Of a DNA stretch of 64,000 bases, positions 4,281 to 58,256 are shown one piece after another. Position 1 is the first letter of the stretch; every line of letters starts with the position of its first letter. Source of the DNA: an uncultured Pseudomonadota bacterium. GTDB taxonomy: Bacteria > Pseudomonadota > Alphaproteobacteria > RF32 > CAG-239. Position numbers and translations under genes: made by a program. A model generated the notes under the pieces. It made no database searches and was not told the DNA's origin. It saw only the letters and a program-made list of their open reading frames with translations. The stretch lies in contig CADAJN010000001.1 of the NCBI GenBank assembly GCA_902788365.1, positions 26,020 through 90,019 on the forward strand. Reading direction: 5' to 3'.

Positions 4281-5036
4281 TTAGATTTCCTTTTGTGTCA
4301 TTGTGCGATGTCGCACTGTTATAAATTGATAAACACTATATAGAATTATCTTTATTTCGTCAAGCACAGCAAGCTTTGCTTGTTTATTATTTTTCACGTC
4401 TGATTTTTCAACTGCCATGCGATTCAAAAACAGCGCTACACGCCACTTTAAGCTTTTGTGTTGCACAATAGACAGTAAAACCGAAGCACTTTTTAATTGT
4501 CCCCGAAATTTATTGTTTTTTTGCCGTGTGCTTAAGCGTATTTTTTTAGTTAAAGGTGACTTTTCCAACCATAAAATTTGCCCCCAAAATGCGCTCAGTA
4601 AAGCCTGCATCGGTAAATATGTGCTTGGTGCTTCATCGTTTAGAACCATAATCAAGCGCGCTAAAGCAGATACGGAGGTGCCAATAATTTCCGACAACTG
4701 ATCTTCTGATAGCGGTTGTTTTCCTGATGCCAAATAACGCCATGCCGGTAGTAAATCCAGCAGTAAATACAGCGACAGATTCTCAGCAACAAAAGCTTGT
4801 TGCAATTGCGCCAATATATTCTGTGACAAAGGAAAATCGCGGCGCATTGCTTTTTCTAAAAATTTAATTTGCTGTTGTTTTGTCTCTGTATCTTTAGTGG
4901 CAGAAAGAAAATGTTGCCACCCCATATGCCAAAATTTAAGATATAATAGCAAAAGCCAACGCTTTGATTTTGGCACCAGAATTAGTAGATCTTTAATATC
5001 AGGCATTGATTTGCTCCAACCATGTGGCAAAATCAT
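4281..5036 (-). CDS. squalene/phytoene synthase family-like paralogue (degenerate motifs)
   Basis: Weak but collinear similarity to the family ([15 protein letters not shown] ... [12 protein letters not shown]). Both Asp-rich boxes are largely absent. It abuts the previous gene by 1 nt and overlaps trmFO by 38 nt. Confidence 0.35.
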
Positions 5037-6469: not shown

Positions 6470-7360
6470 ATGATATTTGATAAACGCTATTTTGTTTGGA
6501 TATTTTTTGCATTATTGCTTGGCAATTTTCCGCAAACGGTTTCTGCCGCAGAAGATGCAGAAACTTCGGCTCCGTCTTTGGCTGCCTATGTGCAACAAGG
6601 CGAAGAAGCGGTTATTGCCGGTGAAGAAAATGAAAATACCGAAGAAGAAACAACAAGCGATGAAAATAAAACTTGGTTTAATAATTTGGTAAACACCGCG
6701 GCGGAAAAAGGTTCGGCAATTATTACTTCAAACAAAGAGAAAGATAATTCTCAACGCCGTTCAAATGCTTCGGTTTTTGATATCAGCGGTGTTATGTTGC
6801 GTATGAGCCAAGAACAAACGCAACAAGCATTAACCAAGCGCGGTTACCGGAAAACATATGAAAAACTTGAAATTCCAAATTTTATTCAGTGGCGTTATGA
6901 AGAAATATGTCGCAACCAAGGCGTTATCGGATATGAACGTATTAACAATTGTGTTGTTTTGATGGCCAAGAAAAATAACTATCAATTTGTGCAACATCAA
7001 ACTTATGCTAATTTTAAAAACAATGAAACCATTGATGTATTTTATACCAGCAACTTTACCGGTAACAAAGTGCATCGCATTATGTATAGTTCCGAGGCAG
7101 CAAACATAAAAGGAGCCGGGGCCAAAGCAGATTATTTGCGCAATTTAAAAATTTATGACTTTTGGAAAAAAGTAAATCAAAAATACGGTGCACCTGACAA
7201 TCAAGAACAGATTATTTGGGGATTAGGTGATAACAAACCGTCTTTACAAGCTTCTACCGGTAAACTGATTCTGCAAGACCCGATGTTGCGTGAACTTGAT
7301 TTTACCAGAATGTCACGTGAAGATCAAAAATTTATGAACACGGCATTTTATACATTTTAG
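6470..7360 (+). CDS. secreted hypothetical protein
   Basis: Cleavable signal peptide (…FPQTVSA/AE) followed by an acidic linker. No recognised domain. Confidence 0.5.
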   Translation: MIFDKRYFVWIFFALLLGNFPQTVSAAEDAETSAPSLAAYVQQGEEAVIAGEENENTEEETTSDENKTWFNNLVNTAAEKGSAIITSNKEKDNSQRRSNASVFDISGVMLRMSQEQTQQALTKRGYRKTYEKLEIPNFIQWRYEEICRNQGVIGYERINNCVVLMAKKNNYQFVQHQTYANFKNNETIDVFYTSNFTGNKVHRIMYSSEAANIKGAGAKADYLRNLKIYDFWKKVNQKYGAPDNQEQIIWGLGDNKPSLQASTGKLILQDPMLRELDFTRMSREDQKFMNTAFYTF

Positions 7361-7372
7361 GAGTCTTTTTTT

Positions 7373-7984
7373 ATGGACAATCAACAAACTTTTTTAGCAA
7401 ATTTAGTATGCACCAGAATCAGCCATGATTTAGGCGGCAACATCGGCGCAATTTCTGCCGCTTTAGAACTGGCCGGTGATAATGGAAACAGTGTCTTGGA
7501 TGCTGACACAAAGAATATTTTAACATCAGCGACCGAAACATTAAAAATCCGGCAAAAATTTTTCCGGCTTACTTTCGGACTTGATTCCATAAGCATAACA
7601 CCGTCAGAACTAACCAAACTTTGCCAAGATTATCTTAATACTTTGGGCAACCGTTCGTCCAAACTGGATTTTGAATGTAACAATATTTCCGCAAATCTTG
7701 CTAAAATCATTTGTTTATGCATCATGATTGGTGCAGAAATTTGCATTAAAGGCGGACATATTAAAATCCATATCGGCGGTAATAAATTGACTATTGATGT
7801 GGCCTCCGATTATAAATTAGCAACGGCTAAAATTGCCTGCTATGAAGCATTGTTAAACGGCAAAAATGATATTGAAAATGCTTCGCAATTTGTGCAGATG
7901 ATTTACTTGCGGCAAATACTCGGTAATGATGTGCCTATAACATTACAAGCGGCAGATAACGCTTGCCGATTTGTTATCGGATAA
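7373..7984 (+). CDS. chpT: histidine phosphotransferase ChpT-like protein
   Basis: CTRISHDLGGNIGAISAALELA and FFRLTFGL align with the ChpT HisKA-like core (HDxxxP/GxxAI). Size is about 200 aa. Confidence 0.55.
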   Translation: MDNQQTFLANLVCTRISHDLGGNIGAISAALELAGDNGNSVLDADTKNILTSATETLKIRQKFFRLTFGLDSISITPSELTKLCQDYLNTLGNRSSKLDFECNNISANLAKIICLCIMIGAEICIKGGHIKIHIGGNKLTIDVASDYKLATAKIACYEALLNGKNDIENASQFVQMIYLRQILGNDVPITLQAADNACRFVIG

Positions 7985-8596: not shown

Positions 8597-9466
8597 TTAT
8601 TTTTGTGCGTGATAAATTGTTGCTTGCTCAGCCAACCAATTATATAAATTCTGCATTTTTTGGTTACCGGCGGCAGCAAAATCTTCCGGATGCCATTGAA
8701 CACATAAAATATTTTGAGTTTCATTTCCCCATGCTTCCGGCACATCATCGGGGGCAAAGGCATAAATTTCCAAATCACTGTCCGCACCATCATTTACAAT
8801 TGCTTCCACGTGGCGCGAATTTACAACCGCTTCCGTAATTTCAAGCAAGCGATGCAACAAACTCTGTGGTTTAATTTGAATGGTGTGCGCCTCTAATTGC
8901 GGGGTTTTATGTTCCAAATCCGTAGAAATGGAGTCTGCAATATTATGATATAATTTAAATCCGTGCATACAGGCAATCATTTGCGCACCGGCGCAAACTC
9001 CAAGCATCGGCAATCTGCGTTTTTGTGCTTCTTTAATGCACGCAATATATGCTTGTGCGCGCAGTCCGGCTGGCGGATATTCCGGTAAAGGCTTGATGTA
9101 AAACTCCGGCGGCGACGCAAAACGTCCGCCCGGAAGCATCAGCGCGTCAATATCTTGCATTTGTGCCACGCAATCGCGATATGTTAAAAAGCACAAATTC
9201 ACGCCACTGTGTGCTAATGATTTGGCATAATTAAAATCCACGCTGTAATAATTTTGCTCACGGCAACATAAAAAACCCACCGTCGGCATTTCTTTTGCCG
9301 GCAACTGTTCTTGCAACAATTGATAATCCGCCGGATTTAAAGTAATATACGGTGCAGTATTCTGCCCTTCATATTTCGCAACATCTTCATCTGAAATTGC
9401 AAAAACATTATATTCCGGCAAATATTGCAAATAAATAGGCTGACCTGTCATTTTAACGAGATTCAT
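8597..9466 (-). CDS. class I glutamine amidotransferase-like / peptidase C26 (PuuD-like) family protein
   Basis: GVCAGAQ (nucleophile Cys) and VQWHPE (His-Glu) motifs typical of gamma-glutamyl hydrolase-like GATase1. Confidence 0.55.
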   Translation of the reverse strand: MNLVKMTGQPIYLQYLPEYNVFAISDEDVAKYEGQNTAPYITLNPADYQLLQEQLPAKEMPTVGFLCCREQNYYSVDFNYAKSLAHSGVNLCFLTYRDCVAQMQDIDALMLPGGRFASPPEFYIKPLPEYPPAGLRAQAYIACIKEAQKRRLPMLGVCAGAQMIACMHGFKLYHNIADSISTDLEHKTPQLEAHTIQIKPQSLLHRLLEITEAVVNSRHVEAIVNDGADSDLEIYAFAPDDVPEAWGNETQNILCVQWHPEDFAAAGNQKMQNLYNWLAEQATIYHAQK

Positions 9467-10142
9467 GCTCTTTAATTTTATGATAAATTGTGTCTGCTTT
9501 CATCAGCTGAACCGTATCTTGAGCTAAATGGCGAGAATGTGCCACTTTCAAAGAATCCTCCCATGTAATTGTATCCGGTGCGGAAGAAATAGAATCCGCG
9601 TGCATACCATCTTCCGGCAATTTTTCTGTTGTGGTCGCAGTTTCCCGCTGTGTTTTTATTACATTGCGACGCACCTCGTCACGCTGATTTGTTTCCGCAA
9701 TAAAATCACCAACATGTTTGGCCGCCACCACTACCGCGTGATTTTTATCGGCAAACAGCCCCACGTATCCGCGCGTAGTCTGTATGGCACCATTTTCGTC
9801 CGTCATCACAAAAACGGCATCATTTGAGCCATTGAAACAAACTTGTTGCAACCGCATGTTGTTGGCTGATTGATAATTTGCAAAATCTTTCTTGCTCAAC
9901 GCACGCGTTAACATATATGCGCCTTTTTGGCGCGTTCCGTCTTTGTTATAAAGCGGCACATCTACCAAATAAACCGTTACCTGCGCACCATATTTATCCT
10001 GCGCTTTCAGCGGCGTGTCATCCAAAAGTCCGGCTTTTTCCTTTTCTGATATTTCTTTAGGCTGTTTTTGGCAACCTGTTGACATTGTCAATGCCGCAGA
10101 TGCAACCATTAACATCGCCAGATGTTTTTGTTTATAAGTCAT
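9453..10142 (-). CDS. putative lipoprotein
   Basis: Start refined to MTYKQKHLAMLMVASAALTMSTGC (lipobox) with GGAGA upstream. Confidence 0.5.
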   Translation of the reverse strand: MTYKQKHLAMLMVASAALTMSTGCQKQPKEISEKEKAGLLDDTPLKAQDKYGAQVTVYLVDVPLYNKDGTRQKGAYMLTRALSKKDFANYQSANNMRLQQVCFNGSNDAVFVMTDENGAIQTTRGYVGLFADKNHAVVVAAKHVGDFIAETNQRDEVRRNVIKTQRETATTTEKLPEDGMHADSISSAPDTITWEDSLKVAHSRHLAQDTVQLMKADTIYHKIKEHESR

Positions 10143-10240
10143 TATATTTCTCCGTAATTTTGCATCGCAGTATAGCATAATTTGACAAAAAGTCAAAGAA
10201 AAAGTTATTTTTTTTACAATGTGACAGGCTCATTTTAAAA

Positions 10241-10296: not shown

Positions 10297-13200
10297 TTAT
10301 ACCGTCGGCATATTGAACCGCCAGGTCTTACCGTCGCTTGCGCGAGTGATGACCAGAACGGAGCCGTTATTTTCGGCAGAAAGTGTATAATCTCCCGTAA
10401 ACACCGTATTGTGACCATTATGGAAGCCCATAATGGTGGCATCGGAGTACGAAATCATACTATAAGTGGTAGAGCCATCTGCGGCGCGCCACTTCATAGC
10501 TGTGGAGGCGTCTTTTGCCTCGCACGCTCTCCAAGCGCCGTTATAATAGGCGGCGGAGTTGATGTTTTCGGCTGTATTATACTCGAACATGCTCTCGTCT
10601 AAAGCGATATCAGCAGCGTCCTTCGGCACAATAAACTTAATCACACCCTTTTCCGTGCGAGCCACAAGAGTATACAACCAATCCTTACCGGTCTCAGTTA
10701 AAGAAACGGTAGCGGCTGTGCCCTTGATGCGTCCCCACTTCAGCTCCTTCTGCGGCTTGTTTACGGTGATTGTTCCGGTGGCCTGTGAGTTCTTGGTATT
10801 TGAACCGTAGGTGACCGAAATATTATTCCAATAACCGTAAATTGTAGCATCTTCTGTATCAGAAGATACAGAGGTGCCGGAGTCGTTAGAAGTGGCTGCA
10901 AACGCTATAATTCCAAAATCGTGGCTCACGCCGTCACGGCTATACACGATATGGTTTGGATCAAAGCTCTCCCACAGGTTGTCCTGCGTTGAAGCATCCA
11001 AAGAGGCAACGGTCTTAATGGTTCTCTTCTCTTGATTGTAAGAGAAGTAACCCTTTGTCTTAGCCTCAGTGTTATCCAAAGTCACGCTTGCAGCGCCCGT
11101 CTGCTGGTTGCCGTTCTTCTCAACGGATGAGAACGGGCCGAGGTAGATCATATTTCTATCAAAGAATTCAGAAATGCTCTCCTCAGTCTTGGTGTTGTCA
11201 GAGAACTTTGTCACCCAAGTCAAATTGACGTTAACTTTGTCGTCAACTACGTTAATGTAGGGGTTCAAAATCTCATGACCGACAACTGTCCTCTCCTTTG
11301 CCAAAACGATCTTACCGGGAGCCGTGATATTCTGGGTATTGTCCCCATAAGTCACGGAAATCTCACAGCTGTAATCGTAAGACATAGAAGTTGCCGTTTC
11401 CTCCGTCAGAGAAGTCTTGGCGTCCACGTAGGCAGCGCTGAAGTCAATGACGTCAAACACATGGCTCACGCCCTCACGGGTATAAACCAGCTTGTTGGCG
11501 TCGGTTGACTCCCACTCGTTATCGCGGCTTGTATTGGCATCGAGGTTGGCCACGGTCTTAATTCTGCGAGTCTGCAGAACGTAAGTCCAATAACCATTGC
11601 TCTTATCCACACTTGAGGTCAGCGTCACAGTGGCAGCACCCGTTGTGAACGGGAAGACAGCGCTGTTGGCCAGCCAATCGCTCAGACGAATCAGTTCTCT
11701 CGGAATGTCGATGTTATCTGACTCACTTTCTTCCGTATTGTTGTTAAACAACGTAACGAACTTCAAATCAGCAGATACATTTTCCTTTGTCACCTTCAAG
11801 TGAGCGTCGCGGATCTCGTGGCCGGTCACAATCTTATCCTTGTCAACAAGGATTGTGCCGGGAGCCATAGAGTTTACCGTGTTGTCGCCATAAGTAATGG
11901 CAATTGTTCCGGCAAAATCATAGGTATCCAACGTTGCAGTTGTCTCCTTCAGCGTTGCGCCATGATTAATCAGTGAAACCGAGAAATCAATCGTGCCAAA
12001 GTCCACAACAAAGCCCTCATCAACATACTTGATGTTGTTCGGGTCCACACAACGCCACGAGTTGTTCTGCGTTGAGCTGTTCAGCGTGGTAACGGCGTTC
12101 AAGAAGCGTGTCTGATTGACACAGCTCCAACCGTCCTCACTGTTCACAGCCTCAGTTGCCTCGAGCTTAATTGTCGGCTGTGCGGTAGCTTCGGCGGCAC
12201 TGGTCTCGTGACTGCTCCATGCGGACAAAAGCACGCGACTGCGCGGATACGTCTTACTGCGAGCTGTCTCCTTCTCAGTATTATCCGAGAGTTTGAGCAC
12301 GTCAGTGAAGCTTGCCGTTACGTCGTCATTGCCAATTGCCAAATTCTTATTACGGGCCTCACGACCGATAACAGAAACATCTGAAATCACGATTTTTCCC
12401 GGTGTCTCAGCGACAACGGTGGAACCGCCCAACGTCACGTTGAACTTGTCGCCATACTTATAGGTGTCTTTTCCGTCTTCCTGACCGGAAAGCGTGACAT
12501 AAGCGCCGTTGGTGTTGTTGACCTCAAACTTCAAATCGTCAAACTTCCACGTCTTGCCCTCGCGGGTGTAAGTGAAGTTGTTGGCAATAGCGATCAGAAC
12601 CTTGTTAGCCTGCTTTGAAGCATTCAGAGTTGCCTCTGATGTTGCATCATAATTCAGCTGGTCAAAATTCCAGAAGCCATTAGCCTTAGCCACCTTCGCG
12701 GTTTCTTTCAGAGCGGCGGCACTGGTTGACTGTGTGGCGTTCTTCTCATACGCCAGCCAGTCTGTTGCCGGCACTGCAGTCCACTCCACGTCAATCTGAT
12801 CCTTGGTAGTAGTTTGCGTCTTGTCATTGAAGTTCTCAACAAAAAGGATCTCGCCCTTAATGTGATTTCCTTCAACCCAGAGCTTACCTTCCTCAAGATC
12901 GAAAGACGTGCGCTCCTTCTGCTTGGTGTAAAGATCTGCCTTAGCATCCAGCGGATGTGCATGACCAAGATAAGAGATTCCAATCACGTCCATAATTTCT
13001 GCCTTCTGCCACCCCTCTTCGTCAGAGGCTACAGAAGTGATGCCGGTTGACGTCTGCGACACGGTCGGAGTCTTAAGATCCCAGACGATATCGCCCGCCA
13101 CCGGATGGTGGTAAACGGCTGTTTCCATCTCAAGGTCAGTCCACATCGTGACGAGATCGTCTTCCACGCTATTACTGTCGTCGGTGCGATAAGTAGCAAT

Positions 13201-14217
13201 CGTCTTCAGGATATCCCAATTTCCGTCAGTTCTTACCTTTGCAGGTTCTCCGGCGGCATACTTCGGGTTGATGGCCAAATCATTATAAGCAAAATTGCTT
13301 ACATAATGTTTGCCACCATATCTCTTGGTGAACTTGTGATTTACCACATAGGACAGGTGCTCGTTGACCACCTCGCCACTCTTCATGGTGAGAATCACGT
13401 CTGCGACAACCTCGCTGGTCGTCTCAGTCAGCCAATACTGATCTTTATTGATGACTTTGAAGTCCTCAACGTCATCAACATCAATCTCGTAGCGGTTCGT
13501 CATAATCTGCACCGGAATCTTGTTGAAAACTTCCGGATCTGCTGTCACGTTTTTCTCAATGACGTCAATCTCCGCTTTATACAGAGTCGGGTGCACTGCC
13601 TTGATATAAGTTTCACCAGCTGCACGAGTCGTGCTTGCCTGAACGTTCTCAACCGATACCAAACGAATAGCAGTGACAGAATCCGATGGGAAAGGCACCA
13701 CTTTGCCGGCAATCTCTATCGTCTCGGTGGTCACCTTGACCGGAACAAACACAGTGTTGTCCTGTGTCTTGGCAATCAGCGTATCCAATTCCTCCCACAG
13801 ACCTGTCTGAGCATTGAACACATAGTGCCTGCGAAGCTCCTGTGACAAGATGTGATTCTCCACCTGCTCGGCGGTAATCTGATAGTTTTCCTTCTCAAGA
13901 TAGATACCACCGTCCAGTTTCGGGTGACGTCCAAACTTCATGGGCTCTCCCTCAATCTCACCATCGACATACGTTGTTACAGTGAGTAAGGCATCCATGT
14001 TGTCAGAAGTCTTGTCATCATCAAGAATAACGTCCCAATCATGGGTCAAAGAACCCTTGATTACCTTGTTCTCTATCCTCTCACCATCAGGCTTATCAAA
14101 GGACTGCTTGTTCCTTCTTGCATCCACGTCATCATTGTTACATGATGACATACCAAAAATCATGCCGACAACAAACAGCGTTGCGGCGAAAAACCGTAAA
14201 AAACTAGACTTAACCAT
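10297..14217 (-). CDS. giant surface lipoprotein with three internal ~100-aa repeats
   Basis: 1306-aa uninterrupted ORF. The signal MVKSSFLRFFAATLFVVGMIFGMSSC-NNDD has a Bacteroidota-like lipoprotein export signal. Repeated blocks TIKTVA(N/S)LDA(N/S)T…YSRDGVSHDFG…SVTYG(D/S)NT.N…APGKIV occur three times. Confidence 0.7.
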   Translation of the reverse strand: MVKSSFLRFFAATLFVVGMIFGMSSCNNDDVDARRNKQSFDKPDGERIENKVIKGSLTHDWDVILDDDKTSDNMDALLTVTTYVDGEIEGEPMKFGRHPKLDGGIYLEKENYQITAEQVENHILSQELRRHYVFNAQTGLWEELDTLIAKTQDNTVFVPVKVTTETIEIAGKVVPFPSDSVTAIRLVSVENVQASTTRAAGETYIKAVHPTLYKAEIDVIEKNVTADPEVFNKIPVQIMTNRYEIDVDDVEDFKVINKDQYWLTETTSEVVADVILTMKSGEVVNEHLSYVVNHKFTKRYGGKHYVSNFAYNDLAINPKYAAGEPAKVRTDGNWDILKTIATYRTDDSNSVEDDLVTMWTDLEMETAVYHHPVAGDIVWDLKTPTVSQTSTGITSVASDEEGWQKAEIMDVIGISYLGHAHPLDAKADLYTKQKERTSFDLEEGKLWVEGNHIKGEILFVENFNDKTQTTTKDQIDVEWTAVPATDWLAYEKNATQSTSAAALKETAKVAKANGFWNFDQLNYDATSEATLNASKQANKVLIAIANNFTYTREGKTWKFDDLKFEVNNTNGAYVTLSGQEDGKDTYKYGDKFNVTLGGSTVVAETPGKIVISDVSVIGREARNKNLAIGNDDVTASFTDVLKLSDNTEKETARSKTYPRSRVLLSAWSSHETSAAEATAQPTIKLEATEAVNSEDGWSCVNQTRFLNAVTTLNSSTQNNSWRCVDPNNIKYVDEGFVVDFGTIDFSVSLINHGATLKETTATLDTYDFAGTIAITYGDNTVNSMAPGTILVDKDKIVTGHEIRDAHLKVTKENVSADLKFVTLFNNNTEESESDNIDIPRELIRLSDWLANSAVFPFTTGAATVTLTSSVDKSNGYWTYVLQTRRIKTVANLDANTSRDNEWESTDANKLVYTREGVSHVFDVIDFSAAYVDAKTSLTEETATSMSYDYSCEISVTYGDNTQNITAPGKIVLAKERTVVGHEILNPYINVVDDKVNVNLTWVTKFSDNTKTEESISEFFDRNMIYLGPFSSVEKNGNQQTGAASVTLDNTEAKTKGYFSYNQEKRTIKTVASLDASTQDNLWESFDPNHIVYSRDGVSHDFGIIAFAATSNDSGTSVSSDTEDATIYGYWNNISVTYGSNTKNSQATGTITVNKPQKELKWGRIKGTAATVSLTETGKDWLYTLVARTEKGVIKFIVPKDAADIALDESMFEYNTAENINSAAYYNGAWRACEAKDASTAMKWRAADGSTTYSMISYSDATIMGFHNGHNTVFTGDYTLSAENNGSVLVITRASDGKTWRFNMPTV

Positions 14218-14662: not shown

Positions 14663-14856
14663 TTTCCTCTTTTTGACATGTGCGTAAATGTTAATCTTTT
14701 CAAAAACGGCGTAGGAACGTATGAGTCCCATGCCGTTTTTTTGTGCTTTATTAAATTTCTTCTTGACAAAATAGAGAAAATATTTTACACTACCGGTTAG
14801 TTTTGGATTATTTTGTGTGCAAATTTTTAATTACTAACCTCTTAAAAGCATTAGCT

Positions 14857-15537
14857 ATGAGAAAGTCTATTTTTATTTTCGGTATCGCCCTTTGTGCGAT
14901 GTTGGTTTGTTCTTGTGAAAGCAAGAAGGAGAAAACTACCCCTCTAACCGGCAATCTGGTAACATTTATGCAGAATGATAAAGTCGGGGTAAAGACTACT
15001 GAAGGCGTAACTTTGGTCAGTGCTGACTACGATGCCATCAGCTTCAACGACAAGGTCAACGTGATTGAAGCCTTGAGCGCCGACGAGACCACGCTGTTTA
15101 GCCTAGACGGATCACGGCTGTTCTCTGCCAAGGATTTCACCACCGAGCCTGCCGGCGACGGATTCTTCCGCATGAAGGCCGGCGAGAAAACCTATCTGAT
15201 CGGAACCGGCGCTGTCAAAGGTTCCTGGGGCCCGTTTGAGGATATTCAGATCAACGGCAACTATCTGTTCTTCCGCGGTGAAGACGGATGGGGAATCGCA
15301 ACTGTTAGCCATCAAGGCCTTGCGCCACGCCGCTTTGCAAAAGCCTATGTGGTGGACAACGGCAAGACATTCGGCGTTTTGGTCATGAATCGCGACGGCT
15401 GGGCGCTTTACGACAAAACCGGCGTTTCCGATGGGGTGCAGTATGACATTCCATCCAAGGTTCTTGCCAAGCAGGTTGCCAAGCTCAAACTGCCGGCTGA
15501 GCCGTATGGCGTGATTAAAGTCAGCTGGGATTTGTAA
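14857..15537 (+). CDS. lipoprotein with WG-type repeats
   Basis: MRKSIFIFGIALCAMLVCSC lipobox. DGWGIATV and RDGWALYDKTG are WG-repeat-like motifs. Confidence 0.5.
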   Translation: MRKSIFIFGIALCAMLVCSCESKKEKTTPLTGNLVTFMQNDKVGVKTTEGVTLVSADYDAISFNDKVNVIEALSADETTLFSLDGSRLFSAKDFTTEPAGDGFFRMKAGEKTYLIGTGAVKGSWGPFEDIQINGNYLFFRGEDGWGIATVSHQGLAPRRFAKAYVVDNGKTFGVLVMNRDGWALYDKTGVSDGVQYDIPSKVLAKQVAKLKLPAEPYGVIKVSWDL

Positions 15538-17695: not shown

Positions 17696-17821
17696 TTTAC
17701 TCTTTAATGCCGCACTTCTTTTGAGGTGCGGCATTTTTGCTTTCCTTGTTCATCCCTAGCCTTTAACAATAAATTAGCAATTCCATGTTATATTTCAAAA
17801 AAAATCGGGGAGACGATTCTG

Positions 17822-18373
17822 ATGAAAAAATTGTTTGTTTTATTGAGTTTTTTACTGTTCATCTTAACGGCTTGCGGGCGCGATGAAGATAACGCACAAC
17901 AAGTTGCCGTAGAAGAAGACTACTCGGATATTGATATTGCCGAAACCGTCGGACCGTCGGCTTCATTAGATTTGTTGCAAATTATTGCTAAAGAACCTAA
18001 ACATTTTCGTCGCGAATTTAAAAAACTGGATAATGCACAACAATATTATTTCTGCGCGGCTTTTGCCATGGGCGCCATGTCGGTTTCAAAACCGGCCACC
18101 GCATCGGCAATGGTTAATTATTTTGTCGGCTTGGGTGTTGCCGAATATGGCCGCGGTATTGATGCCGAAACATACAAGGCGTTTGACTTTGGCAAAAATA
18201 TTTTTCACTTTGAACCTGTCGTCAATTTGATTTTACACCGAAGAATTTGCGAAGATATCATCGGTCGTGCTTCCGAAGGCGTAAAAAGCAAAAAACTGAC
18301 GACCAAAAACATTAACGAGCTCGGTAAAAAAGAAGTGCGCAAAATCGTAGATTTTATTCAAAAGAGCAATTAG
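17822..18373 (+). CDS. putative lipoprotein
   Basis: ATG at 17822 after GGGGA. MKKLFVLLSFLLFILTAC lipobox. Confidence 0.5.
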   Translation: MKKLFVLLSFLLFILTACGRDEDNAQQVAVEEDYSDIDIAETVGPSASLDLLQIIAKEPKHFRREFKKLDNAQQYYFCAAFAMGAMSVSKPATASAMVNYFVGLGVAEYGRGIDAETYKAFDFGKNIFHFEPVVNLILHRRICEDIIGRASEGVKSKKLTTKNINELGKKEVRKIVDFIQKSN

Positions 18374-31168: not shown

Positions 31169-31936
31169 TTAGTGTTGCACATAGAAAAAGTCATAAAGTT
31201 TGGCAAAAACAATATTCATATAAACAAACAAGATGGCCTTTAAGCTGTAATCCAGCCAATCTTGCAGCTGATATATACTGTCAATCTGAGTTGCAAGAGC
31301 CTCGGCAAACAAAAGCATCACACAAAGCAAAACCAACGCCCAATAATTGCCGCGCATTTTGTTACCGGCTTGTTTAAATGAAGCATTTTGCCGTTGCAGT
31401 GAAGCAATCCACGCCATATACGGCCGACAAATCAGCGGCGGTGCCAACAAAGCCACAATAGCGTAACAAATAAATATTTCAAAACTGACCGCACCTCCTT
31501 TATCGGCTTTGGCCAAGCTTTCAAAAATCTGCACATAGCGCTCATACAAATCCAAGTAAACATCGTTATATCCGAGCAAAAGCGGAATCATCGGCAAATA
31601 AACAATCAGTGCCATACTCAAAAACAGCAACACCGCCGCTTTGGTAGAAGGTGTCAGACTGCCGGTAATCGCTTTAATGAAAAAATACGGTTTGAGTTGA
31701 TAATAATAGCGATAAAACGCACACCAACAAACATAAAACACCACCAGCCAAACAATACTGAGCGGATTGGATATTCCCCCGGGAATCATTTTAAAAAGCA
31801 CAATATATGCCCAGTTGGCCACAAAAACGCTCAAACAAAAAAGCCAATTTGATTTGATATACATTACCGCATTCATTAAAACTTTAAGCGGATCCAAACG
31901 AATGACTTTATCTGTTTTCAGCGTCATTTTCGGCAT
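31169..31936 (-). CDS. integral membrane protein, unknown function
   Basis: Six or more hydrophobic segments. Confidence 0.45.
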   Translation of the reverse strand: MPKMTLKTDKVIRLDPLKVLMNAVMYIKSNWLFCLSVFVANWAYIVLFKMIPGGISNPLSIVWLVVFYVCWCAFYRYYYQLKPYFFIKAITGSLTPSTKAAVLLFLSMALIVYLPMIPLLLGYNDVYLDLYERYVQIFESLAKADKGGAVSFEIFICYAIVALLAPPLICRPYMAWIASLQRQNASFKQAGNKMRGNYWALVLLCVMLLFAEALATQIDSIYQLQDWLDYSLKAILFVYMNIVFAKLYDFFYVQH

Positions 31937-36720: not shown

Positions 36721-38061
36721 ATGAATAAAAAATCACTCTTAGTTTATACGTTAATGTTCAGCATTTTGGCGGCTTGTGCCAATGCCAAAGATAAGGCCGA
36801 AGAACAGCAGGAAAACACTTATGAACTTTTAAATATATTCGGCGAAGTGATGGAACGCACCAAAGCGCTTTATGTTGAAGAACAAACCGATAAGCAGTTG
36901 ATTGAATCGGCATTAAACGGCATGTTGACGTCGCTTGACCCGCACTCAAGCTATTTGAATGAAGAAGATTTCAAATATATGAATGAGCAAACCAGCGGCA
37001 AATTCGGCGGTTTGGGTATTGAAATTACCATGGAAAACGGTTTGGTAAAAGTAATTTCACCGATTGATGACACACCGGCGGCTAAGGCCGGAATTAAAGC
37101 CGGCGATTTTATTACCGATATTGACGGACAAACCGTTATCGGCTTAACATTAAATGAGGTAGTCAGTAAACTGCGCGGTAAACCGGGAACAAAAGTTAAA
37201 ATTACAGTGCGCCGTGTGAATGAAGAACCGTTTGATGTTACCTTAAAGCGCGACGAAATTAAGGTAACCTCGGTTAAGAGCGATATTAAAAACGATGACA
37301 TTTTATATGTGCGTATTTCGGCGTTCAACGAAGATGTTGACACCGACACCAAAAAGGCCGTTGAAAATGCTAAAAAACAGCTCAAGGACAAGTTTGCCGG
37401 CATCGTAATTGATATGCGCAATAATCCGGGCGGATTGCTGGATCAGGCGGTTAAGGTTTCGGATTTATTCTTGGAACAGGGTGAGATTGTTTCTACCCGC
37501 TCGCGCAACGAAGAAGATACGGTCAAGTTTTCGGCCACTCCGGGCGATATTGCCGAAGGATTACCGATTGTTGTGATGATAAATGAGGGGTCGGCTTCTG
37601 CCTCCGAAATTACCGCAGGTGCTTTGCAAGACCATCACCGCGCCATTATTTTAGGGCAAAAATCGTTCGGCAAAGGCTCGGTGCAAACGGTTTTGCCACT
37701 TCGCAACAAGGGAGCTATGCGCATTACAACGGCGCGTTATTACACGCCGTCAGGGCGTTCCATCCAGGCTACCGGTATTGAGCCTGATATTGAAGTAAAA
37801 CCGGCTAAAGTGGAAGAAATTCAGTCGCACGGCTTAAATTTGAGTGAAGCCGACTTAAAAGGTGCGCTTAAGAATGAACAGGCTAAAGAGACCAAAAAGA
37901 ACGAAAAAGCCGAACAAGACAAAGAAAAAGACGCTAAAGACTATCAGCTGGTCAGAGCTTTGGACTTAGTAAAAGCTTTATATTTGCACAGCCAAAATGA
38001 CAACCTGAAAGTTGAGAAAAAGGCTGAAAATACTAAGGCGGCGGAGAAAAAAGCAAACTAA
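36721..38061 (+). CDS. ctpA: carboxy-terminal processing protease (S41)
   Basis: PDZ domain plus the GSASASEI Ser nucleophile and K motif. Confidence 0.85.
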   Translation: MNKKSLLVYTLMFSILAACANAKDKAEEQQENTYELLNIFGEVMERTKALYVEEQTDKQLIESALNGMLTSLDPHSSYLNEEDFKYMNEQTSGKFGGLGIEITMENGLVKVISPIDDTPAAKAGIKAGDFITDIDGQTVIGLTLNEVVSKLRGKPGTKVKITVRRVNEEPFDVTLKRDEIKVTSVKSDIKNDDILYVRISAFNEDVDTDTKKAVENAKKQLKDKFAGIVIDMRNNPGGLLDQAVKVSDLFLEQGEIVSTRSRNEEDTVKFSATPGDIAEGLPIVVMINEGSASASEITAGALQDHHRAIILGQKSFGKGSVQTVLPLRNKGAMRITTARYYTPSGRSIQATGIEPDIEVKPAKVEEIQSHGLNLSEADLKGALKNEQAKETKKNEKAEQDKEKDAKDYQLVRALDLVKALYLHSQNDNLKVEKKAENTKAAEKKAN

Positions 38062-38537
38062 TGACAGAGACCTACAGATTAAATGCCGGCGTCGTGGTTT
38101 TTAATCGCAAGCGACAAGTGCTTTTGTGTCGGCGCAGCGATGAAAAGGATGCGTGGCAATTTCCGCAGGGCGGCATAGAAAAAGGTGAAACACCGGCAGC
38201 AGCGGCTTTGCGTGAGCTTGAAGAAGAAACTTCTATTTGCAGTGTTAAGTTGGTAAAGACACTCAGCGAATCGGTTAAATATCGCTTTCCGCCCGATGTT
38301 TTGGCTGTCACACAATCACGGGGGTGGAAACATGTTGGGCAGGATATGTTTTTGTCATTGGTATTTTTTGAGGGTGATGACAGCGAAATCAATTTAGATA
38401 CCAAGGACCGTGAGTTTAATGCTTATCGTTGGGGAACATTGCAAGAAGCATACGATTTGATTGTGAATTTCAAAAAACCGGTATATGCCGTCGCCGTGCG
38501 CGAATTTACGCCGCTGATTGAACAATATCCAATTTGA
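38061..38537 (+). CDS. rppH: RNA pyrophosphohydrolase (Nudix)
   Basis: Nudix box GGIEKGETPAAAALRELEEETSI. Its start overlaps the ctpA stop (TAATG). Confidence 0.8.
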   Translation: MTETYRLNAGVVVFNRKRQVLLCRRSDEKDAWQFPQGGIEKGETPAAAALRELEEETSICSVKLVKTLSESVKYRFPPDVLAVTQSRGWKHVGQDMFLSLVFFEGDDSEINLDTKDREFNAYRWGTLQEAYDLIVNFKKPVYAVAVREFTPLIEQYPI

Positions 38538-38786
38538 AAACCGATTGCCTTTTTGTCGTATGTTCCACGTGAAACATTAGACGGAATTTTCACTTGTAAA
38601 TAATTGATATTATGAGTTATTGACAAGATTTTATACAGAAAATCATACTTTTCTGGCAAGAAAAATCTTATATTTTTAAGTCAATATGTAGACAAAAATA
38701 AATATGATGATATATGATATTATATCGGAAGGCTCTGAGCTGTCACGCAGTGCTTTGGTGAACTAAAAATGATACAAAATAATTTG

Positions 38787-38859
38787 CACTGCGTAAGCAG
38801 CAGCGAAGCTTCTGATGCCTTATCCACGCAAAGCGTGGAGGCATGACAGTTTTATTTTG
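38787..38859. repeat. short palindromic repeat element (family 1, partial copy)
   Basis: cactgcgtaagcagca… shared with 57126-57141. Ends …ggaggcatgacag like the 128-bp unit terminus. Confidence 0.5.
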
Positions 38860-39166
38860 CCGCACTGGCGTGCGGGGATGCCTACGTCGCCTGCGGCTCC
38901 TCTGCATGACATACTCTTTGTCATTGTGAGGAGTGCGAAGCACGACGTAACAATCTTCGGACGCAAGTCCGATAATTAGCACACTTACCGCACTTTGTGC
39001 GGGGATACCTACGTCGCCTTGCGGATCCTCTGCATGACATACTCTTTGTCATTGTGAGGAGTGCAAAGCACGACGTAACAATCTTCGGACGCAAGTCCGA
39101 TAATTAGCACATTTACCGCACTAAAGTGCGGGGATGCCTACGTCGCCTGCGGCTCCTCTGCATGAC
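38860..39166. repeat. tandem array (about 2.4 copies) of a 128/129-bp structured repeat unit (family 1)
   Basis: Units 38860-38987, 38988-39116 and partial 39117-39166 are nearly identical. Each has hairpins ccgcacNNNNgtgcgg, atgaca…tgtcat, and cggac-GCAA-gtccg. Confidence 0.75.
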
Positions 39167-39224
39167 AGGAAGTAAATAGGACTGAATATAAGATAGAAAT
39201 AACGGATAGTGTGTATAGATAAAA

Positions 39225-39385
39225 TAAAGTCTCCTTACGCGGTGTAGAAATAGCGGATAACGAGGAAAATACAAAGAGGGACGCTTGTTCAAGCCAAAAC
39301 CATTTTTAATGAGTCAAATACGCAGTTCCCCTCTTTGCGCGGTGTAGACAGAACTACATAAGCAAAGAGGGGAACAAGTAGATGA
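39225..39385. repeat. family-2 repeat motifs (cgcggtgtagaNa… / caaagagggNa) including a 12-bp inverted repeat hairpin
   Basis: cgcggtgtagaaa at 39238 and cgcggtgtagaca at 39338. gttcccctctttg…caaagaggggaac inverted repeat. Related to the 104-bp units at 48978-49213. Confidence 0.5.
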
Positions 39386-39401
39386 CCATTAAAAATGGTT
39401 T

Positions 39402-39803
39402 TTATTTCTTGGTGGAAACACCGGCGTTCACATCCTTAACCGACACCGACAAATCGTCGGCAATACGAGCCGAACGACCGCGCAAAGCACGCAAGAAATA
39501 TAATTTCGCACGACGAACTTTACCAACGCGCGAAACTTCAATCTTTGCCACATTCGGAGAATATAACGGGAATACACGTTCCACACCTTCACCAAACGAA
39601 ATTTTACGAACCGTGAAAGACGAATTTAAGCCGTCATTTTTACGTGCAATACAAACACCTTCATAAATTTGAATACGTTCACGATCGCCTTCTTTTACTT
39701 TTGTATGAACGCGCAATGTATCACCCGGCTTAAAAATCGGCATATTTTTGCCTTCCATCAGCTTTTCCATTTGCTCTTTTTCAATATTTTCAATAATGTT
39801 CAT
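39402..39803 (-). CDS. rplS: 50S ribosomal protein L19
   Basis: [12 protein letters not shown]…[10 protein letters not shown]…[12 protein letters not shown] signature. Confidence 0.9.
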
Positions 39804-42941: not shown

Positions 42942-43158
42942 TAAAGTTTTATTCCTTTATGCCGTTAATACAAACAAATTTACGTCAGTGTGCGAACCCT
43001 CGCTGACTGACGGAACTCCTTAGAGTCTGGTATTTTTACATCATTTTAACGTGGTAAAAATCCTCTAAATTCGCTCATTTTATACGTTAAAAAATCGCCA
43101 TTGTCAATAACTTTTTTAACCAAAAACTAACGCTTTTTTTATTATTTGTCGCTATTAT

Positions 43159-48868: not shown

Positions 48869-48960
48869 ATTGCCGCACGATGTGCGGAGATGCTTACGTC
48901 GGCCTAAAGGCCTCCTCAGCATGACAGACAAGGCCGAGATTACCCGCCTGCGCGGGTAAT
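48869..48960. repeat. family-1 palindromic element (dispersed copy)
   Basis: ccgcacgatgtgcggagatgcttacgtcggcc…cctcctcagcatgacag resembles the 128-bp unit head. gccgagattacccg…cgggtaatgacagg inverted repeat resembles 57106-57163. Confidence 0.6.
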
Positions 48961-48977
48961 GACAGGTTATTTTTATT

Positions 48978-49213
48978 TAGACGAGGTGGTAAATTACGAC
49001 GAGGTTGTAAACCTCGGATAATGAGCTTAATACGCCATTGTTTTTAGACGACGTGTAGAAACTACTACACAAGGAAAAAAACACAAGTAAGCACCAGCTA
49101 GATGAGATTGTAAACCTCGGATAATGAGCTTAATACGCTGTTGTTTTTAGACGACGTGTAGAAACTACTACACGAGGAGAAAAACAACAAGTAGTAAGCC
49201 ATTAGACGAGGTT
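48978..49213. repeat. tandem array (about 2.3 copies) of a 104-bp repeat (family 2)
   Basis: Units 48997-49100 and 49101-49204 are near-identical (gattgtaaacctcggataatgagcttaatacgc…gacgacgtgtagaaactactacac…). Partial copies flank them. Confidence 0.7.
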
Positions 49214-57105: not shown

Positions 57106-57163
57106 TTGCCGAGATTACTCGGTCCACTGCGTAAGCAGCACGCAGTCTGCCGAGTAATGACAC
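57106..57163. repeat. family-1 palindromic element (dispersed copy)
   Basis: gccgagattactcgg…cactgcgtaagcagcacgcag…ccgagtaatgacac: terminal inverted repeats around a palindromic core. Confidence 0.55.
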
Positions 57164-57250: not shown

Positions 57251-58213
57251 TTATTTATGGCGTTGATGCCACAGCAGGCGCAGCAGACGAAATTGCGTTT
57301 TCAGTGATAATTCGCTGAATTTGATGATTTTATCATGTGCCAGCGCCAAATATTTTTGCTTGAAAAAATATTCCAGCTCATCAAGATTTTGTGTGCTTTT
57401 GCTGATTTTTGAAAGCACCATTTTTAATGATTGAGCAATGCGTTTACGGCGCACAAACGGCCATTCGGCCATTTTATTATGCACCATAAAATATTGATAA
57501 ACAAAGTTTATACCGGTGAAATAATCTGCCACTTTTTTGGTGGAAAAGCGACTGCGAATAATGGACGGCGAAGTTGTGTTGTAATGATACAAATTTTCGT
57601 TGATGTAGGCATAAGAACTGACCGAAGCGACCAAACAAGCCGTCCATGGCCAATCTTCAAAATATATGCCTTCTATAAAGCGATAATTGCGCACAATATC
57701 AGCCCGATAAAGCTTATTCCACGCCACCGCCGACACATAGCGGTTTTTGTTGGTGTATAAGCTCTTCAAAGGGCGAGTTGCAATGTTATAATGCACTTGT
57801 TGCGGTGCATATATTTTCACATTCGGAGATTGTTTACCCAAGCGGCAAAACTTTGTGCTGATAACCAGAGGCTGCTTGCTTTTTTCAGCCACCGTATAAA
57901 AAATTTCCAATGTTTGCGGATGCAAATAATCATCCGAATCAAGAAAAAACACATATGCACCTCTGGCTTCATCAAGCCCGCGATTGCGTGTGGCAGACAA
58001 CCCTTTATTTTTTTGCGTGAAAACTTTAATGCGTTTATCTTTTTTGGCATAGCGGCGCAAAATTTCACCGCTGCCGTCGATTGAGCCGTCATTTAAACAA
58101 ATAACTTCAATCTCAGGCAAAGATTGGCACAAAACCGAATCTAAGCAACGCGGCAAATCTTTTTCCACGTTATATACCGGAATGATAACTGAAACTTTAG
58201 GGTTGGCGTTCAT
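57251..58213 (-). CDS. family 2 glycosyltransferase
   Basis: VSVIIPVYNVEKDL…DGSIDGS GT-A N-terminal motifs. Start refined to MNANPKV. Confidence 0.65.
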   Translation of the reverse strand: MNANPKVSVIIPVYNVEKDLPRCLDSVLCQSLPEIEVICLNDGSIDGSGEILRRYAKKDKRIKVFTQKNKGLSATRNRGLDEARGAYVFFLDSDDYLHPQTLEIFYTVAEKSKQPLVISTKFCRLGKQSPNVKIYAPQQVHYNIATRPLKSLYTNKNRYVSAVAWNKLYRADIVRNYRFIEGIYFEDWPWTACLVASVSSYAYINENLYHYNTTSPSIIRSRFSTKKVADYFTGINFVYQYFMVHNKMAEWPFVRRKRIAQSLKMVLSKISKSTQNLDELEYFFKQKYLALAHDKIIKFSELSLKTQFRLLRLLWHQRHK

Positions 58214-58221
58214 ATTTTTCC

Positions 58222-58256
58222 CCAAAACAAGAAAATAGCCCTGCAAAGGGCTATTT
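58222..58256 (-). terminator. intrinsic terminator after dsbA-like gene
   Basis: aatagccctttgcagggctatt hairpin followed by a T-rich run on the minus strand. Confidence 0.5.

Follow-up and report, generated by a model that had tools for sequence, protein, structure and literature searches.

The tandem array in the spacer between rppH and rplS is probably a cluster of small, non-coding and non-autonomous repeats of the REP/BIME/REPIN kind, whose 128-bp doublets would be moved by a candidate trans-acting enzyme. The repeats belong to a lineage-specific family of REP/BIME-like mosaic repeats in an uncultured alphaproteobacterium, and the sequence of this family is new. Strict membership of the REP family is not supported, since the module is longer, has three helices and does not conserve GTAG. 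The first-pass annotation had proposed a genome-specific REP- or RPE-like family (RPE, Rickettsia palindromic element) that amplified tandemly at this place, and we agree on a REP-like family that is lineage-specific, dispersed between genes and amplified in tandem.

Throughout, the window is the whole 64-kb stretch of DNA that was analysed. A tandem 128-bp array in the convergent rppH/rplS spacer had been annotated before, and TRF, a repeat search and the gene models all agree with it. TRF reports a tandem array at 38870-39167 with a period of 128, 2.3 copies, 93% matches and a score of 538. In the repeat search of the window array, 103-nt copies spaced by 128 bp are 97% identical. The array lies within an 864-bp spacer, between the stop codons of two converging genes. 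The gene at 38061-38537 (+) encodes a NUDIX protein that passes the RppH equivalog model NF001938 with 132.9 bits (cutoff 116); the opposing gene, at 39402-39803 (-), is rplS (TIGR01024). The locus is free of mobile-element genes and is adjoined by housekeeping genes. Another, independent assembly of this strain (L001, 100% identical) has a contig that stops within the array, at window position 38948, as expected of a repeat.

To obtain the module anatomy, the region was cut at the recurrent hexamer ATGACA and the strands were then compared. The 128-bp unit consists of two diverged copies of one 52-54-nt module, placed head-to-head in opposite orientation. A covariance model, R1, was made from an alignment of 24 copies of the module family. 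According to R1 there are six full members of the family in the window, at two loci, and the orientation through the array alternates +,-,+,-,+. The layout is one solo module 2 followed by two 128-bp doublets in tandem. The features of the spacer are the following.

38787-38848, plus strand: simple family-1 module, made of the sub-module CACTGCGTAAGCAGCA and the hairpin GATGCC-TTAT-CCACGC-AAA-GCGTGG-A-GGCAT, with the 3' box ATGACA at 38843-38848.

38849-38859, plus strand: T-rich linker GTTTTATTTTG between modules, which recurs after ATGACA in all strains.

38860-38911, plus strand: solo module 2, 72.9 bits with R1, resident in all strains.

38912-39039, both strands: doublet 1, 128 bp, with halves of 75.1 bits (-) and 61.2 bits (+) with R1; its parts are a 7-nt linker TACTCTT, module 2' at 38919-38972 (-), a 15-nt head-to-head linker at 38973-38987 and module 2 at 38988-39039 (+).

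39040-39167, both strands: doublet 2, 128 bp, which repeats doublet 1 in tandem and has halves of 75.1 and 71.9 bits with R1; module 2' is at 39047-39100 (-) and module 2 at 39116-39167 (+).

The two doublets are identical at 121/129 positions (94%), and the terminal ATGACA of doublet 2 is followed at once by the unique flank GGAAGTAAATAGG. The unit boundaries annotated earlier (38860-38987, 38988-39116 and 39117-39166) are one valid phase of this repeat. The partial copy that had been placed before them, at 38825-38849, is related to the units, but it is of simpler build and has only the 3' end GGCATGACAG in common with them; R1 gives 38824-38848 a weak score (14.8 bits, E 0.009). In other strains the simple module carries the compensatory stem variants CCGCGC/GCGCGG and CCGTGC/GCGCAC.

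Each module consists, in order, of a hairpin H1, the box RGAT, one side of a 3-bp stem (S2), TACGTC, a variable hairpin H3, TCCTC, the other side of the 3-bp stem (S2') and ATGACA. On the plus strand module 2 reads CCGCAC-N3-4-GTGCGG / RGAT / GCY / TACGTC / small hairpin / TCCTC / WGC / ATGACA. In the solo copy (38860-38911) these blocks are H1 CCGCAC-TGGC-GTGCGG, GGAT, S2 GCC, TACGTC, H3 GCC-TGC-GGC, TCCTC, S2' TGC and ATGACA. Module 2', read as the reverse complement of 38919-38972, is TCGGAC-TTGC-GTCCGA / AGAT / TGT / TACGTC / GTGC-TTCG-GCAC / TCCTC / ACA / ATGACA. The two modules are identical at 37/54 positions (69%) and share the same block architecture. Three motifs are invariant: GAT, ATGACA and the core CCTC of the TCCTC box, which reads GCCTC in three 2' copies.

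Three palindromes per unit had been annotated, and all three are present. However, they are not independent of each other, as they belong to two diverged and opposed copies of one module. The hairpins ccgcac/gtgcgg and cggac/gtccg are the equivalent H1 hairpins of modules 2 and 2', and atgaca-tactct-ttgtcat is their tail-to-tail junction. The doublets are 108-128 bp long with imperfect inverted ends of ~30 nt, TGTCAT-TGT-GAGGAG...CGACGTA and TACGTCG...TCCTC-TGC-ATGACA; for comparison with IS ends, the end sequence is TGTCATTGTGAGGAG. The REP hallmark GTAG, a tetranucleotide that REPs have 5' of the palindrome foot, is not conserved. The complement of CCTACGTCG reads GTAG in the window copies and GAAG, GTAA or GTGA in others.

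Two other spacers of the window contain related elements, as the first-pass annotation had noted, and we place these at 48873-48964 and 57111-57162.

48873-48926, plus strand: solo member of the module-2 family, 71.9 bits with R1, directly after the dnaJ stop codon and conserved in all strains.

48930-48964, plus strand: GAGAT-type module GGCCGAGAT-TACCCGC-ctgc-GCGGGTA-ATGACA, right after the ATGACAG of the preceding module, with GAGAT...ATGACA at 48936-48964.

57111-57162, plus strand: GAGAT-type module with an 8-bp stem TACTCGGT/GCCGAGTA around the sub-module CACTGCGTAAGCAGCA and the 3' end ATGACA, identical in L015.

The stretch reported as shared between 38787 and 57.1 kb is the 16-mer CACTGCGTAAGCAGCA, exact at 38787 and 57125, where 0.03 matches would be expected by chance. 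Near dnaJ, the window and L002 carry the GAGAT-TACCCG-loop-CGGGTA-ATGACAG module (38 nt), which L003-L006 and L009-L011 lack. At the 57.1-kb element a homologue look-up with the 331-aa protein at 57251-58246 gave no match, and the neighbouring gene led only to short contigs identical to the window. A generic pattern made of GAGAT, a stem of at least 4 bp and ATGACA has just two sites in the window and is too strict for module 2, which has a 3-bp closing stem. ATGACA is not markedly over-represented outside the clusters.

The three helices are well maintained. In the 24 aligned copies 91.6% of the cells are paired, compared with 71% for shuffled columns and 21-47% for slid partners, and 8/13 pairs vary on both sides in a compensatory manner. 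R1 recovers 67 members in other loci, counted in 112 kb of loci selected for carrying one, and the covariation holds on the 47 distinct sequences among them. At least ten different sequences are found for H3, with the stem kept in all. The folding energy of the 128-nt unit, in the phase 38860-38987, is -53.5 kcal/mol with RNA parameters (z -4.2) and -29.4 kcal/mol with DNA parameters (z -4.3). Its minimum-free-energy structure is formed by H1, a long imperfect hairpin made from the bodies of modules 2 and 2', and H1'. The covariation of the helices fits selection on a DNA hairpin and selection on an RNA hairpin equally well and cannot tell the two apart.

The compensatory changes, the strong RNA fold and the location of all three window loci, in convergent spacers downstream of plus-strand genes, would fit structured RNAs, i.e. 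3'-UTR stabilisers or processing sites for the rppH or rplS transcripts, or small RNA genes. However, there are no matches to Rfam 15 at gathering thresholds in the array, and even at E up to 10 the best one in the region has an E of 0.53. No intrinsic terminator is found in 38850-39170, where the T-rich linkers begin 5 nt past the stems, behind GACAG. The sole promoter-like match in the unit is weak (9/12), and the copies that read GTCCGACAAC do not keep its -10 hexamer GATAAT. Due to the alternating orientation the same fold would be obtained from either strand. Units are missing from most conspecific strains, with presence and absence among near-identical ones, and clusters elsewhere are also located in divergent and tandem spacers. 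Finally, the GNRA-type loop that had been annotated in the cggac/gtccg hairpin is not conserved, as it is GCAA or GTAA in 20/29 copies and GCCA, GTCA, GTTA or ATAA, all non-GNRA, in the other 9/29. We consider a structured RNA unlikely, and the earlier suggestion that the units could be transcribed as stable RNAs is not supported by these observations.

Other functional readings were tried and rejected. These were a terminator, a promoter unit, DnaA boxes and attC-like sites. The T runs are displaced from the stems, neither the promoter-like hexamers nor the TTATCCAC motif is conserved between copies, and both R'/R'' core sites and an integrase are lacking. Uptake sequences were also considered. 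Of the full Neisseriaceae DUS and Pasteurellaceae USS motifs, a single Haemophilus USS match is present, and none of the k-mers is over-represented.

Using protein look-ups with RppH and L19, we obtained the same locus from eleven metagenome assemblies, with flanks 97-98% identical to the window and an rppH-rplS spacer of 498 to 1004 bp. Nine of these assemblies (L002-L006 and L008-L011) contain solo module 2 only, followed directly by GGAAGTAAATAGG. When L002, L005 and L006 are aligned to the window they are without exactly 256 bp, which corresponds to doublets 1 and 2. L017 contains one doublet and one shortened module, and L007 at least one doublet, with an assembly gap after it. The copy-number variation among related strains that the first-pass annotation had named as a check of its proposal is thus seen, with 0, 1 or 2 doublets at rppH-rplS among conspecific strains, the copy numbers in other strains being lower bounds since metagenome assemblies may collapse or chimerise repeats. 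The difference between none and at least one doublet is robust, as the empty sites are without any module 2'. Given the conspecific assemblies with the solo module only, the array represents a gain specific to the strain, located at the ATGACA end of a resident module. Where the doublets abut the ATGACA of the solo module, there is no visible target-site duplication. Smaller modules are gained and lost in the rppH spacer at the site between GGCATGAC and AG.

Outside this locus, the module-2 pattern was compared with species-representative genomes and found in one fragmented MAG, Alphaproteobacteria bacterium SGB_2851, on three contigs, with all matches near contig ends. One of these contigs has at least 2.5 tandem units at a locus other than rppH-rplS. 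A scan of metagenomes for the 2' core gave 19 loci, which fall into about 12-15 contexts. Together with the MAG contigs, and judged by their unique flanks, they amount to about 15 contexts beside rppH-rplS, each with 1 to at least 3 tandem units. All copies seen are extragenic, and the clusters are found most often in convergent spacers, also in divergent and tandem ones. Where a name could be given to a flanking gene, it is that of a housekeeping gene (FadL, MgsA, CDP-alcohol phosphatidyltransferase, ThyA and BipA). No hits were obtained for two module patterns in viral contigs, and no match for the array in a BLAST search of plasmid and phage collections.

This distribution bears on the simplest explanation of the array, a purely local tandem duplication of a 128-bp segment by slippage. 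The doublets are adjacent and 94% identical, and slippage or unequal crossing-over would suffice for the step from one to two. However, in comparison with nine other assemblies the first doublet is already an insertion, and about 15 further contexts contain the same doublet, several of them in tandem. A duplication of this kind is therefore very improbable as the full explanation.

The doublet is always part of a mosaic of other ATGACA-ended modules, built from a limited set of modules and linkers, and the modules within one cluster are mostly co-oriented. Among 23 complete doublets examined, 12 directly follow the ATGACA of another module, and purine-rich sequence is found beyond each outer ATGACA. 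Solo, 5'-shortened and one-armed modules are common and are themselves polymorphic. In many modules the 3' end ...ATGACA is intact and the 5' side is cut at varied points, with a purine-rich linker of 10-13 nt instead, e.g. AGGAAAGAGAAA-GTGCGG..., GGGAAAAGGGAA-CGGCTCCTCTGCATGACA and GGAAAAAGGAT-GAACGAGCGATGACA.

With imperfect terminal inverted repeats, a size typical of MITEs and presence or absence between strains, the doublet could be taken for a DDE-type MITE that is cut and pasted by a classical IS transposase via the ~30-nt inverted ends. This is improbable, since there is no target-site duplication at any of the 23 complete doublets, the common solo, 5'-shortened and one-armed modules are gained and lost themselves, and no IS with matching ends is found in the sequence examined. 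In the window ORFs tested, no Pfam transposase or integrase was detected.

The behaviour of the family is close to that of the E. coli BIME-2, in which REP/iREP pairs and linkers are repeated in tandem, with a number that varies by locus and strain and with well conserved copies at the same locus (PMC3333891). Both are extragenic hairpin repeats in which two diverged types are inversely paired with short conserved linkers. In both, the pairs are in tandem with a number that varies by locus and strain, the copies of one locus are near-identical, and the mosaics are built from limited motifs. The module itself is different. It has 52-54 nt with three helices and unpaired boxes, whereas a REP is a single imperfect palindrome of 20-40 nt (PMC3333891). 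Its boxes are RGAT, TACGTC, TCCTC and ATGACA instead of GTAG, no sequence similarity to E. coli REP/BIME was detected, and the host is an uncultured alphaproteobacterium. REPs of the E. coli type number hundreds per genome and flank the gene of their cognate RAYT, a Y1 HUH transposase; for the present family the counts are two loci in the 64-kb window and the 67 members in the selected 112 kb.

The array also resembles the REPINs of P. fluorescens, an inverted doublet that folds to a long hairpin and is present or absent as a unit (PMC3116915). REPIN clusters consist of tandem near-identical doublets plus an extra single REP, and new copies insert within or beside those already there (PMC3116915). 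The window array likewise has tandem near-identical doublets and one single repeat, with copies inserted in or beside existing ones. In contrast to REPINs, the two halves of the doublet are only 69% identical and are consistently the paralogues 2 and 2', not the same REP twice, and the family has numerous solo and shortened modules. Regarding the replicating unit, doublets were gained at rppH-rplS and number 23 overall, and the solo and shortened modules are polymorphic too.

A third comparison is with the NIME of Neisseria (PMC1797815), long intergenic arrays of many short families separated by a short constant motif, at fixed chromosomal positions and with strain-variable content and length. 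By analogy, the modules could be recombination punctuation, with repeated recombination instead of doublet transposition as the origin of the mosaics and of the array. In agreement with this, many types of module and linker are combined in the arrays, with the constant ATGACA as punctuation, as NIME arrays have been described (PMC1797815), and their content varies by strain at fixed chromosomal positions. There is also apparent flank exchange at arrays: L030 has the left flank seen in L020 together with the right flank seen in L033, and L022 has the right flank of L017 and a different left flank, although some apparent exchanges may be assembly chimeras. Other features disagree. The constant motif of NIME is the 20-bp dRS3, ATTCCC-N8-GGGAAT, of which the window contains no match with at most one mismatch allowed, whereas ATGACA is at the 3' end of the modules. 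The modules within a cluster are mostly co-oriented, and no phage-related recombinase is known for this family. Further, recombination alone leaves near-identical doublets in about 15 unrelated spacers unexplained. We judge an origin by recombination alone to be rather unlikely.

IS200/IS605-derived palindrome-associated elements (PATEs) carry hairpins and insert directly 3' of a short specific sequence without target duplication, and the ends of IS200/IS605 elements are not inverted. The family shares with them the hairpins, the position of 12/23 doublets directly after ATGACA and the lack of target duplication. It differs in the inverted ends of the doublet, and no TnpA/TnpB gene was seen.

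By analogy with the behaviour of BIME-2 and REPIN clusters, mobilisation by a hairpin-specific nuclease-ligase appears to be the most likely mechanism. The doublets would be moved as folded single-stranded DNA by a trans-acting candidate enzyme that recognises the hairpin and acts at ATGACA. This could be a RAYT, an IS200/IS605-like HUH tyrosine transposase or an equivalent enzyme. A search with E. coli RayT (tblastn) together with a RAYT motif search found none in 371 kb, which is a small part of a genome and argues neither for nor against a RAYT. New copies would land preferentially beside resident modules, and the new insertion junction would be ATGACA followed by TACTCTTTGTCAT. The step from one to two doublets may be due to strand transfer by the same enzyme, or to unequal recombination or slippage between the direct-repeat modules. 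An effect on the cell, if any, would be a by-product, i.e. hairpins that protect the 3' ends of the rppH or rplS-operon mRNAs, or a recombination hot spot.

Copying from the 3' end would fit both the 5'-shortened modules with intact ATGACA and the co-oriented additions after a resident ATGACA. Target-primed reverse transcription, or a one-ended rolling-circle or HUH-type process, could anchor the copying at the 3' end and produce directional arrays. The 5'-shortened modules could equally be explained by RAYT-type cleavage at alternative sites, and alternative-site cleavage has been proposed for the diversification of BIMEs (PMC3333891). We assign a low probability to the view that the family is not RAYT-driven and is instead an undescribed non-autonomous element copied from its 3' end.

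A REP/BIME/REPIN-like family has several consequences. For the species, its mosaics break short-read assemblies, as the contigs of L001, L010, L011 and L012-L014 end in them, and they may mark rearrangement points. Strains of this uncultured gut or rumen bacterium could be typed by the copy number, which differs between them. Gammaproteobacteria are the group in which repeats of the REP/BIME/REPIN type are best understood, and to our knowledge REPIN-RAYT systems have not been described in this alphaproteobacterial lineage. The RAYT groups associated with REPs have been described mainly from Gammaproteobacteria, and Alphaproteobacteria rarely contain the broad Group 1 (PMC5581495). The same population behaviour (inverted doublets, tandem clusters and a copy number that varies by strain), seen in an alphaproteobacterium with modules of another architecture and without GTAG, would widen the range of the REP/BIME/REPIN phenomenon, and the family raises the question of the driving enzyme. 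If a new 3'-anchored copying mechanism were behind the shortened modules, the family would be of broader interest.

Distinct from family 1, the REP/BIME-like intergenic repeats with a 3' ATGACA box, there is a second repeat family in the window, found at 48998-49203 and at 39170-39400. It is a 103-bp tandem repeat with a TRF score of 344, whose unit includes the hairpin GAGGTT-GTAA-AACCTC and the motif GGATAATGAGCTTAA. A covarying outer stem encloses the conserved core ACGMSGTGTAGA..CTAC, and the folding of one unit obtained a z-score of -3.4. The usual place of this family is about 12 A/T-rich nucleotides 3' of a family-1 ATGACA end, and its copy number differs between strains, from one to three. 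In the convergent rppH-rplS spacer the rplS-proximal portion is occupied by copies related to it.

A third repeat family, AGACCCTTCGGGGAACATACGGCAAAAATCACTATCGCAGATTTTTG..., whose unit measures 55 or 91 bp, is absent from the window. In four conspecific strains (L002, L004, L007, L010) it is located just 3' of the rppH stop codon, equivalent to about 38555 in the window; the copies in strains other than that of the window number one to three in tandem and are found at TTTTTGTCGTATGT. The family is also carried by L021 and L026, and another locus contains two to four copies.

About 20 nucleotides 3' of the rppH stop codon, at 38560-38577, lies an 18-bp palindrome, ATGTT(C/T)CACGTGAAACAT, which has one mismatch in the window and is perfect in the other strains; it might bind a protein or form a hairpin. 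The next 200 bp or so (38580-38780) are AT-rich and contain several sigma-70-like promoter matches. This block is kept in most strains; in L002 it is replaced or deleted.

In the whole window, the only Rfam match at the gathering threshold is the ffh sRNA, and one long ORF is without a Pfam match.

Other features of the window (coordinates, strand, description)
42975-43027, minus strand: ffh sRNA (RF01793), 36.7 bits, upstream of the ffh gene
10297-14217, minus strand: ORF of 1306 aa, without a Pfam hit at an E-value of 1e-5 or lower

At the same Pfam threshold no match was obtained for the medium-sized ORFs at 103-768, 1231-1884, 4281-5036, 6470-7984, 9453-10196, 14803-15537, 17726-18373 and 31169-31936.

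Further variants of family 1 are seen in loci from other assemblies, at about 7800-8000 of L031 and also in L017, L022, L025, L031, L032 and L035. One is a 48-nt module (...GCTGAACGAGCGATGACA) present as four tandem copies, while a separate series consists of 5'-shortened modules fused to a purine-rich linker of 10-13 nt (AGGAAAGAGAAA, GGGAAAAGGGAA and similar).

In the locus L030 the left flank is that of L020 and the right flank that of L033, with the junction inside a doublet, i.e. a head-to-head inverted pair of family-1 modules; either the repeat was the site of a recombination event or the metagenome assembly is chimeric. Next to a module cluster in L022 (1780-1824) and L025 (1475-1495) there are two or three consensus DnaA boxes (TTATCCACA). 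The DnaA-box relative is more distant, its rplS side being 88.8% identical to the window, and its left flank is not that of rppH. The region with these boxes may be an origin or the dnaA promoter region.
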